DNA of 45,042 nucleotides from positions 1 to 45,042 of IMG/VR virus record IMGVR_UViG_2563366951_000002. The stretch is one strand, 5' to 3'. Within the stretch, counting starts at the first letter, position 1; each line of letters opens with the position of its first letter. Of this stretch, positions 37,403-38,295 are shown piece by piece. The notes below the pieces were generated by a model, which did not search any database, had not been told where the DNA came from, and worked only from the letters and a program-made list of their open reading frames with translations. This stretch comes from a virus. Taxonomy: Duplodnaviria > Heunggongvirae > Uroviricota > Caudoviricetes. The translations under genes were made by a program, and so were the position numbers.

Positions 37403-37416
37403 CTGTACATGTACAG
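37403..37416. promoter_or_regulatory. Perfect 14-bp palindrome, candidate operator of the toxin-antitoxin operon
   Basis: CTGTACATGTACAG directly upstream of the antitoxin Shine-Dalgarno and start. Confidence 0.5.
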
Positions 37417-37426
37417 AGAGGGTGCC

Positions 37427-37840
37427 ATGAAAATCATTACTTACACGCAAATGCGATCGGATTTATCTGCAACGCTGGACTGTTTACGCTCTGGTGAAAG
37501 CGTCACAGTTACGCAGCGCGGAAAGCCCGACCTTGTCATCAGTGCAAAATCAGTTGATGAAATCGCTTCCGCAGATGAGGTAAAAACATCTGCGAAAACA
37601 ATAGACACGCATCTTGCGCAATTAATTGCATCGAATTTGTCACCACAGATAACGGAGGGTGTCATGAAGCTTACTAAGCAATTGGATGCCCTTCTTCAGT
37701 CTGATGAGGCTCGCCAGACTATGATGAAGGCCACTAATGCAGCAGTTGCTTTGCAGGGCGTGTCTGAGTCATTTATCAAAGCTCTGCAACATACTCAGAC
37801 CAAGCATGCGGACATCATAAAAAAACTGGAAGATAAGTAA
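37427..37840 (+). CDS. Phd/YefM-type antitoxin with extended C-terminal region (137 aa)
   Basis: ATG at 37427 with GAGAGGG upstream; N-terminus MKIITYTQMRSDLSATLDCLRSGESVTVTQRGKPDLVI has Phd/YefM character; stop overlaps the toxin start (TAATG). Confidence 0.65.
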   Translation: MKIITYTQMRSDLSATLDCLRSGESVTVTQRGKPDLVISAKSVDEIASADEVKTSAKTIDTHLAQLIASNLSPQITEGVMKLTKQLDALLQSDEARQTMMKATNAAVALQGVSESFIKALQHTQTKHADIIKKLEDK

Positions 37841-38247
37841 TGACTGAGATTACATTCCTTTCGGTAGATGAGGTCATCGCTATTCAGAAGAGCACATTGC
37901 CAAATAGCGGACAACCAGACCGGGGAAAACTCGAAGGTGCCCTCAATCGCGTCGATAACTTACGCATGTATGAAGGATGTGAGGATTTATTTAAATTTGC
38001 AGCTATGTACATGGTTGCGATAGCGAAGTCTCACGCTTTTAATGACGCCAATAAGCGAACGGCTTTCCAGGCCGCCAGCGTGTTTTTGCTTTTGAATGGC
38101 TATGAACTGAATACCTCAATGGAGTTAGTCAAGCTGACCATCTTTGCTGCTACGGGAGAGGCCGACTGCGATAACACTGCTTTGGCGCTTAAACTTTTGT
38201 CAGATTATAAGAATGAGCTGCTGGCAGATACGATAACTGGCTACTGA
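37840..38247 (+). CDS. doc: Doc-family toxin (Fic/Doc fold, 135 aa)
   Basis: Motif HAFNDANKRTA matches the Doc signature as in P1 Doc (HIFNDANKRTA); translationally coupled to the upstream antitoxin. Confidence 0.8.
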   Translation: MTEITFLSVDEVIAIQKSTLPNSGQPDRGKLEGALNRVDNLRMYEGCEDLFKFAAMYMVAIAKSHAFNDANKRTAFQAASVFLLLNGYELNTSMELVKLTIFAATGEADCDNTALALKLLSDYKNELLADTITGY

Positions 38248-38270
38248 TAGCAAAAAGTAAATTGTACACA

Positions 38271-38295
38271 ACCCGCCGCCGAGCGGGTTTTTTTA
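38271..38295 (+). terminator. Intrinsic terminator after the toxin gene
   Basis: Stem ACCCGC/GCGGGT with 6-nt loop followed by TTTTTTTAT. Confidence 0.65.

Follow-up and report, generated by a model that had tools for sequence, protein, structure and literature searches.

The window analysed here is the whole stretch of 45,042 nucleotides (nt) of the IMG/VR virus record IMGVR_UViG_2563366951_000002. It is a segment of an Escherichia coli chromosome with ybhC at the left end and ybhB at the right end. These two genes flank the classical lambda attachment site, and a complete temperate phage lies between them. The late tail region of this prophage carries a pair of overlapping genes for a Phd/YefM-like antitoxin and a Doc toxin, preceded by a palindrome and followed by a terminator (Table 1). 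The pair is very probably an intact, self-regulated Phd-Doc type II toxin-antitoxin cassette, held as optional cargo in the late tail operon of a myovirus prophage with lambda-like regulation. A first-pass annotation had described such an operon in the baseplate gene cluster, and its observation and interpretation proved essentially correct. The pair was indeed located between the baseplate hub gene and the spike gene, as the annotation had it, but not directly behind the hub gene, from which it is separated by a gene for a secreted protein of 116 amino acids (aa). Both genes are already named as antitoxin and toxin in RefSeq, and the pair is an uncharacterised member of the Phd-Doc systems.

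The second open reading frame (ORF) of the pair is a predicted Doc protein with the Doc form of the Fic motif. The Doc-type motif reads H-x-F-x-(D/N)-(A/G)-N-K-R, whereas that of the Fic AMPylases reads H-x-F-x-(D/E)-G-N-G-R-x-x-R. The motif HAFNDANKRTA and the TAATG overlap with the antitoxin gene were present as first annotated, and H65-A-F-N-D-A-N-K-R73 showed no variation among ten Doc homologues. The ORF scored above the curated cut-offs of TIGR01550 (DOC_P1, 81.3 bits, cut-off 38.65) and PF02661 (45.4 bits, cut-off 24), which confirmed its membership of the Doc family. It also matched phrog_577 'Doc-like toxin' at 1.5e-33 and was identical to RefSeq WP_001515094.1, annotated as a death-on-curing toxin. 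The closest solved structures were those of P1 Doc (3k33_A, E = 7.3e-20), with 41% identity over 118 aa. A shorter Doc was called in one E. coli assembly (GCA_017159875.1, locus L034, 4414-4791). Its 125 aa, against 135, reflect a C-terminal truncation in an otherwise identical cassette.

The antitoxin had the same sequence as RefSeq WP_001515093.1, which is labelled a Phd/YefM family antitoxin. Its 137 aa agree with the earlier estimate of about twice the length of P1 Phd, which has 73 aa. A longer ORF beginning at 37409 is less likely than the start at 37427. Residues 1-45 were aligned with P1 Phd by hhalign at 92% probability, and a precomputed match to PF02604 was carried by most antitoxin homologues. 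In the AlphaFold2 model, residues 1-40 formed a beta-alpha-beta-beta domain with a predicted local distance difference test score (pLDDT) of 82-88. This was followed by disorder at residues 45-58 and by four helices at lower confidence. The best PDB matches of the model in Foldseek were to P1 Phd (4zlx_A, template modelling (TM) score 0.76, root-mean-square deviation 2.6 A, 35% identity). At the level of the model, these matches confirmed the N-terminal domain as a Phd-type DNA-binding and dimerisation fold. The antitoxin family comprised 68 clusters at 90% identity, with all named members originating from Enterobacterales save one Pseudomonas-labelled record. Across the family, the N-terminal domain was invariant, the linker variable and the C-terminus, F..AL..T...HA.II..LEDK, again invariant.

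The C-terminal motif was also found apart from the rest of the antitoxin. It stood beside the same Doc subfamily in antitoxins of 56-157 aa whose N-terminal and middle parts were different or missing. Among these were Enterobacter and Lelliottia antitoxins with a middle region very different in sequence, Phd-domain antitoxins of 84-116 aa and Xenorhabdus proteins of 56-79 aa without a Phd domain. Most proteins with the motif were encoded directly upstream of a Doc that was 65-76% identical to the prophage Doc. As this Doc subfamily is consistently accompanied by the motif, the C-terminal helix is the candidate element for neutralising Doc, and the doubled length in comparison to P1 Phd would then be due to a linker inserted between two functional ends. 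No sequence similarity between the C-termini of the antitoxin and of P1 Phd was detected with hhalign. The Xenorhabdus mini-antitoxins (L018-L023) contained little beyond the C-terminal motif. Two of them, in L020 and L023, were present without Doc, and that of L023 adjoined a gpV-type spike gene and an apparent HicA/HicB pair.

The perfect 14-bp palindrome reported ahead of the pair, CTGTACATGTACAG, was found between the -10 element and the ribosome-binding site. Its rarity was dropped as an argument, as perfect palindromes of 14 bp are expected by chance in 45 kb (1 observed, 3.6 +/- 1.8 in Markov-1 shuffles). Its significance rests on position and conservation instead. The palindrome was unchanged in six cassettes with coding DNA of 72-83% identity, in which the block TATGC[A/G]CTAATCTGTACATGTACAGAG[A/G]GGG was constant except for the two bracketed positions. 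The core TGTACATGTACA was located 8-12 nt ahead of the start codon in every examined locus with a Phd-domain antitoxin. These loci were from Pectobacterium and Pantoea in the same slot, Serratia downstream of the Q antiterminator gene, Morganella in a chromosomal context, and Enterobacter and Lelliottia in other phage-like gene contexts. The core was degenerate (CTGTACACATACAG) in the Xenorhabdus loci L021 and L022 and absent in L018 and L019, and in all four the antitoxin is without the Phd domain. As its conservation follows that of the Phd domain in different genera and genomic contexts, the palindrome fits a putative autoregulatory operator.

A putative sigma-70 promoter in front of the palindrome was read manually and not derived from a scan. 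Its parts, TTG(A/C)TC and TATGC(A/G)CTAAT, were kept in the six diverged cassettes, and the cassette may have a weak sigma-70 promoter of its own. Two other candidate elements were dropped, an inverted repeat ATCAA..TTGAT over the -35 element, which was not conserved in other cassettes, and an additional TGTACA at 38263, which was not conserved in the loci L009 and L010.

For the distribution of the pair, the hub-to-spike interval was compared in 75 usable IMG/VR viral contigs. The pair was present in two of these close relatives and missing in 73. Similarly, a near-identical tail module was present in 57 complete E. coli genomes, of which two carried the pair and 55 did not. DNA of the cassette was detected in 6 of 5426 complete E. 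coli genomes, each time in the hub-spike slot, and no match was obtained in plasmid or phage record collections at the sensitivity of blastn. The interval itself, followed in the window and at the equivalent place in L002-L008 and L041-L120, was hypervariable, with 27 sequence clusters among the 75 relatives. Behind the small secreted-protein gene it spanned from 73 bp to about 2.1 kb, the shortest being the empty slot of L065 with the terminator alone between the small gene and the spike gene. Other E. coli slots contained DUF4236 on the opposite strand, various small proteins and larger unknowns. Alternative cargos included small secreted or membrane proteins, a Mu-F-like zinc-finger protein and a P22-type antirepressor with Arc-like genes. 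Searches of the alternative cargos with PADLOC and Pfam were almost all negative, and most cargos had no recognisable family. The GC content was 44-47% over 36700-38300, compared to 52-60% in the flanks. The absence of the pair from most prophages with the tail module, together with the one empty slot, supports its assignment as optional cargo, a moron, in a hypervariable hub-spike slot (36994-38305) and not as a structural component, in agreement with the moron proposed in the first-pass annotation. In the slots of L110 and L119, two overlapping genes at positions 362-1490 encode proteins of 258 aa and 123 aa. The 123-aa protein appeared HEPN-like by eye (AYYAMFH ... RNEADY), and neither protein had a Pfam match at E <= 0.01.

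The strong terminator noted after the pair was present as a hairpin with a run of seven T, but it was not specific to the operon and its folding energy was unremarkable against shuffled sequences (z = 0.10). In the last 50 nt ahead of the spike gene, compared across L041-L120, a hairpin with a T-run was located directly before the spike start codon in 75 of 75 relatives, whatever the cargo. Since all slots end in this way, the terminator is a feature of the phage backbone that bounds the cargo slot on the right, with the cargo inserted just upstream, and it is not part of the pair. At least six different stem sequences occurred among the 75 slots, so the pairing is maintained by compensatory change within what is presumably a single late tail operon. 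The sole Rfam match, Trp_leader on the hairpin, scored below the threshold and was put down to resemblance to a terminator. As the phage encodes a Q antiterminator, the natural reading would be that the terminator is read through in lytic growth and acts as an insulator in the lysogen.

Diverged relatives of the cassette were found in E. coli Br_190/DEC5A (L009, L010), E. coli AB66 (L011) and Serratia sp. Ag1 (L012). Doc was 88-94% and the antitoxin 71-83% identical in these loci. The flanking genes were far more diverged, with 52-54% identity for the hub, 43-54% for the plug and 43-46% for the small gene. In comparison to the allele of L009, Doc showed a nonsynonymous divergence (dN) of 0.034 and a synonymous divergence (dS) of about 1.5, corresponding to a dN/dS of about 0.02. 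The antitoxin had a dN of 0.10 and a dS of 0.87 (dN/dS about 0.11), and dS of Doc was saturated against L011. Judged from these substitution rates, the toxin is under strong purifying selection. The combination of high synonymous divergence and low dN/dS indicates that the pair is probably old and selectively maintained and not a recent arrival. In the same slot, the pair was also present in Pectobacterium, Erwinia and Pantoea, with antitoxin identities of 61%, 71% and 49%, respectively. An identical antitoxin was found in ten distinct places, all in the hub-spike context with differing flank alleles. A cassette tied exclusively to the baseplate slot was rejected, as relatives from Gibbsiella (64% identity) and Serratia (45%) were located downstream of Q in other prophages, which points to movement of the lineage between cargo sites of the late region. 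One further relative of the pair was present in a non-phage chromosomal context (L013).

The reading as an intact, self-regulated cassette starts from the observed gene identities, layout, cargo status, palindrome conservation and purifying selection, and the following course of events is proposed from them. In the lysogen, the pair would be transcribed from its own weak sigma-70 promoter. A dimer of the antitoxin would bind the TGTACATGTACA palindrome, which would overlap the transcription start, and repress the operon. With its invariant C-terminal helix, the antitoxin would occupy Doc and block it. In the P1 model, Doc phosphorylates EF-Tu and halts translation when the labile antitoxin is not replenished (PMC4803016). 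By homology, the prophage Doc should act on EF-Tu, and the antitoxin should be the repressor of its own promoter. Once the antitoxin is no longer made and the labile protein has been degraded, Doc would be free to phosphorylate EF-Tu (Thr382 in the P1 paradigm) and arrest translation. The backbone terminator would shield the spike gene and the downstream tail genes from transcription of the cassette in the lysogen, and in lytic growth the phage Q antiterminator would read through it. Selection would likely act through a penalty on cells that lose or delete the prophage region, through the abortion of infections in which host gene expression is shut off, or through both.

Several results weigh against this reading. 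The antitoxin scored just below the curated cut-offs of PF02604 (28.5 bits, cut-off 29.8) and TIGR01552 (20.2 bits, cut-off 20.8), and the match covered residues 1-42 and about half of each profile. The resemblance to Phd was confined to the first 40-45 residues, and the C-terminal two thirds were modelled at low confidence (pLDDT 57-80). A strict sigma-70 consensus scan of 36900-38400 gave no promoter. The cooperativity bridged by Doc in P1 may be inapplicable to the prophage cassette, because the latter has one composite palindrome and not two separated sites. In PADLOC-DB 2.0, Doc showed weak matches to the candidate systems PDC-M59B (1.9e-6) and PDC-S23; the antitoxin had no match. A literature search returned no paper on the element, its RefSeq accessions or Doc-based phage defence.

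Abortive-infection defence was considered as the main role, albeit tentatively. Host shut-off by an invading phage would stop the resupply of antitoxin, freed Doc would halt translation and the invader would fail; the long antitoxin linker might act as a sensor. The location of the cassette in a hypervariable prophage slot, a typical site of prophage defence genes, is consistent with this role, as are the relatives with 45-64% antitoxin identity in another classic moron site downstream of Q and the strong purifying selection. The PADLOC matches of Doc point in the same direction but are weak and lead to uncharacterised candidates. Furthermore, no match to a defence family was obtained for the alternative cargos that were tested, the literature search found no published Doc-based defence, and the linker is replaced or absent in relatives, with no sign of a sensor function.

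Addiction as the main role, in which post-segregational growth arrest stabilises the prophage or its tail-gene region against excision or deletion as in the plasmid prophage P1, is unlikely to account for the cassette. The nearest characterised system, phd-doc of P1, shares gene order, junction and operator type, the cassette is situated amid essential tail genes, and the same allele is kept between differing flank alleles. However, spontaneous loss is rare at the lambda attachment site, into which the prophage is integrated, and the cassette is missing from most relatives. The truncated Doc of L034 additionally implies that loss of the toxin is tolerated.

A selfish passenger without benefit for phage or host, hard to lose and spread by homologous recombination between related tail modules, is improbable. 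Its low prevalence, the lack of mobility genes of its own and the identical allele between different alleles of the hub, small gene and spike would agree with such a passenger. The strong constraint on the toxin and the invariance of the operator despite saturating synonymous divergence argue against it, as does the retention of the cassette in at least eight genera.

A more specific proposal is that the long-linker Phd-Doc lineage is a dedicated phage-borne device for abortive infection or superinfection exclusion. It would occur solely in Q-antiterminated late-operon slots, namely hub-spike in myovirus tails and Q-to-lysis in lambdoid phages, and its helical linker of about 70 residues would sense an invader signal or tune the release of Doc. 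This is quite improbable; if true, a Doc kinase would be shown to act in defence for the first time. That the pair is a structural or assembly part of the tail type, as its recurrence at one site in the diverged tail modules of Escherichia, Serratia, Pectobacterium, Pantoea and Erwinia could imply, is refuted by the distribution and next to impossible, given its absence from nearly all close relatives, the empty slot in L065 and the relatives outside tail clusters and in the non-phage context of L013.

The remainder of the prophage is organised as a lambda-like temperate phage with a long late operon on the plus strand that encodes a DUF3383 sheath (Table 1). The small secreted protein between the hub gene and the pair corresponds to the RefSeq 'STY1065/STY2022 family phage-derived protein'. 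Its gene was found in most relatives with 40-100% identity and was fused or replaced in some. It had an N-terminal extension of 180 aa in L052 (296 aa in total) and was swapped for unrelated lipoprotein-like genes in L043 and L063. In the DnaB-type helicase, about 450 residues separate the N- and C-terminal DnaB domains and gave a borderline LAGLIDADG match of 22.6 bits, which suggests an intein. An HNH/NUMOD4 homing-endonuclease-like gene was present in the early region (16358-16867), and a gene for a KilA-N/ORF11CD3 protein was located just ahead of the terminase region (20195-20746). At the right end of the prophage, beside the tail-fibre genes and ybhB, the minus strand encodes an acyltransferase of the Acyl_transf_3 family (42643-43686), possibly an O-antigen-modifying moron.

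Table 1. Features of the cassette and of the surrounding prophage; positions refer to the window.
Feature	Position	Strand	Remarks
Lambda-type integrase	1419-2489	minus	
S24 CI-like repressor	9410-10144	minus	
DnaB helicase	11879-14359		826 aa
Q antiterminator	17676-18299		PF03589, 193 bits
Dit-like baseplate gene	34967-35593		
Baseplate plug gene	35590-35895		
Baseplate hub gene	35898-36992	plus	phrog_196 baseplate hub, 1.3e-84; PF22759 E217_GP41, 26.3 bits, just below the cut-off of 27
Small secreted protein	36994-37344	plus	116 aa with a signal peptide and two Cys; phrog_3443; bounds the cargo slot on the left
Putative sigma-70 promoter	37374-37402	plus	-35 TTGATC (37374-37379); 17-nt spacer; TG at 37394-37395; -10 ACTAAT (37397-37402)
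Putative operator CTGTACATGTACAG	37403-37416		perfect 14-bp palindrome of two abutting TGTACA hexamers
Antitoxin gene	37427-37840	plus	137 aa; begins at the ATG after GAGGG
Predicted antitoxin domains			residues 1-40 Phd/YefM-like DNA-binding; about 41-65 poorly conserved linker; helical middle; C-terminal helix
Antitoxin C-terminal helix			invariant, F116..AL..T...HA.II..LEDK137
Doc toxin gene	37840-38247	plus	135 aa; Fic-fold kinase family; start overlaps antitoxin stop (TAATG, 37838-37842)
Doc catalytic motif HAFNDANKRTA	38032-38064	plus	H65-A75; aligned with HIFNDANKRTA of P1 Doc
Intrinsic terminator	38270-38296	plus	hairpin 38270-38289; 7-bp G+C stem, 6-nt loop, T7; 9 nt before the spike start
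Baseplate spike gene	38306-39043	plus	PF18352, 140.9 bits; RefSeq 'membrane-puncturing spike protein'
Sheath initiator	39043-39396		
Baseplate_J	39397-40596		

Taken alone, the pair adds little to the known Phd-Doc systems. The points of note are the hypervariable cargo slot and the modular family of long-linker antitoxins. The hub-spike slot of a widespread enterobacterial myovirus tail module is a defined place to seek new genes expressed in the lysogen or involved in defence. The antitoxin family constitutes a natural dissection of a Phd-type antitoxin, in which the DNA-binding domain, the operator and the C-terminal motif are fixed and the linker ranges from absent to about 90 residues. 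It could be used to study how linker length affects the neutralisation of Doc and the control of the operator.

Among known systems, Phd-Doc of P1 (PDB 3K33, 3KH2, 3DD7, 4ZM0) resembles the prophage cassette most in being phage-borne, with the antitoxin gene before the toxin gene and an identical TAATG junction. The similarity extends to Doc, with the identity given above and the same H-x-F-x-D-A-N-K-R motif, and to the fold of the antitoxin N-domain as matched by hhalign and Foldseek. The leader of P1 phd, TATAAT-TGTGTACACA-taac-GAGTACAC-GAGG-ATG, has the same order of elements, i.e. -10, TGTACA-type palindrome, Shine-Dalgarno sequence and ATG. The P1 operator holds TGTACA and AGTACA at the position of the palindrome in the prophage cassette, with the TGTACA hexamer common to both. 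In contrast, P1 has two operator sites about 13 bp apart, whereas the hexamers of the prophage cassette abut in one composite palindrome of 14 bp. In the prophage antitoxin, the DNA-binding domain and the C-terminal helix are set apart by about 70 residues more than in P1 Phd, and this helix has no detectable sequence similarity to its P1 counterpart. P1 is furthermore a plasmid prophage, and the present cassette is situated in the tail operon of an integrated, lambdoid-regulated myovirus.

The chromosomal Phd-Doc of Enterococcus faecalis (PMC13034048) likewise combines Doc with an upstream antitoxin and a single palindromic operator near the promoter. Its antitoxin has an AbrB/MazE-like beta-dome N-domain and neutralises Doc by dimerising it (PMC13034048). 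The N-domain of the prophage antitoxin is P1-Phd-like instead, and the similarity of the prophage Doc to the E. faecalis structure, PDB entry 9vzc, was much weaker (E = 3e-10). As cargo, the cassette is comparable to phage morons, which are cassettes expressed in the lysogen from within late operons of temperate phages, and to prophage defence hotspots such as those of P2 and P4 (bioRxiv 10.1101/2021.01.21.427644), which are also optional and occupy a fixed slot between conserved structural genes. Lower GC content, orientation on the late-gene strand, a downstream terminator and many alternative cargos at one site are shared as well. It differs from them in that the terminator is a property of the backbone and not of each moron, in that most of the alternative cargos have no recognisable family, and in the location of the slot, which is flanked by a baseplate hub-associated gene and by the spike gene in a myovirus with a DUF3383 sheath.

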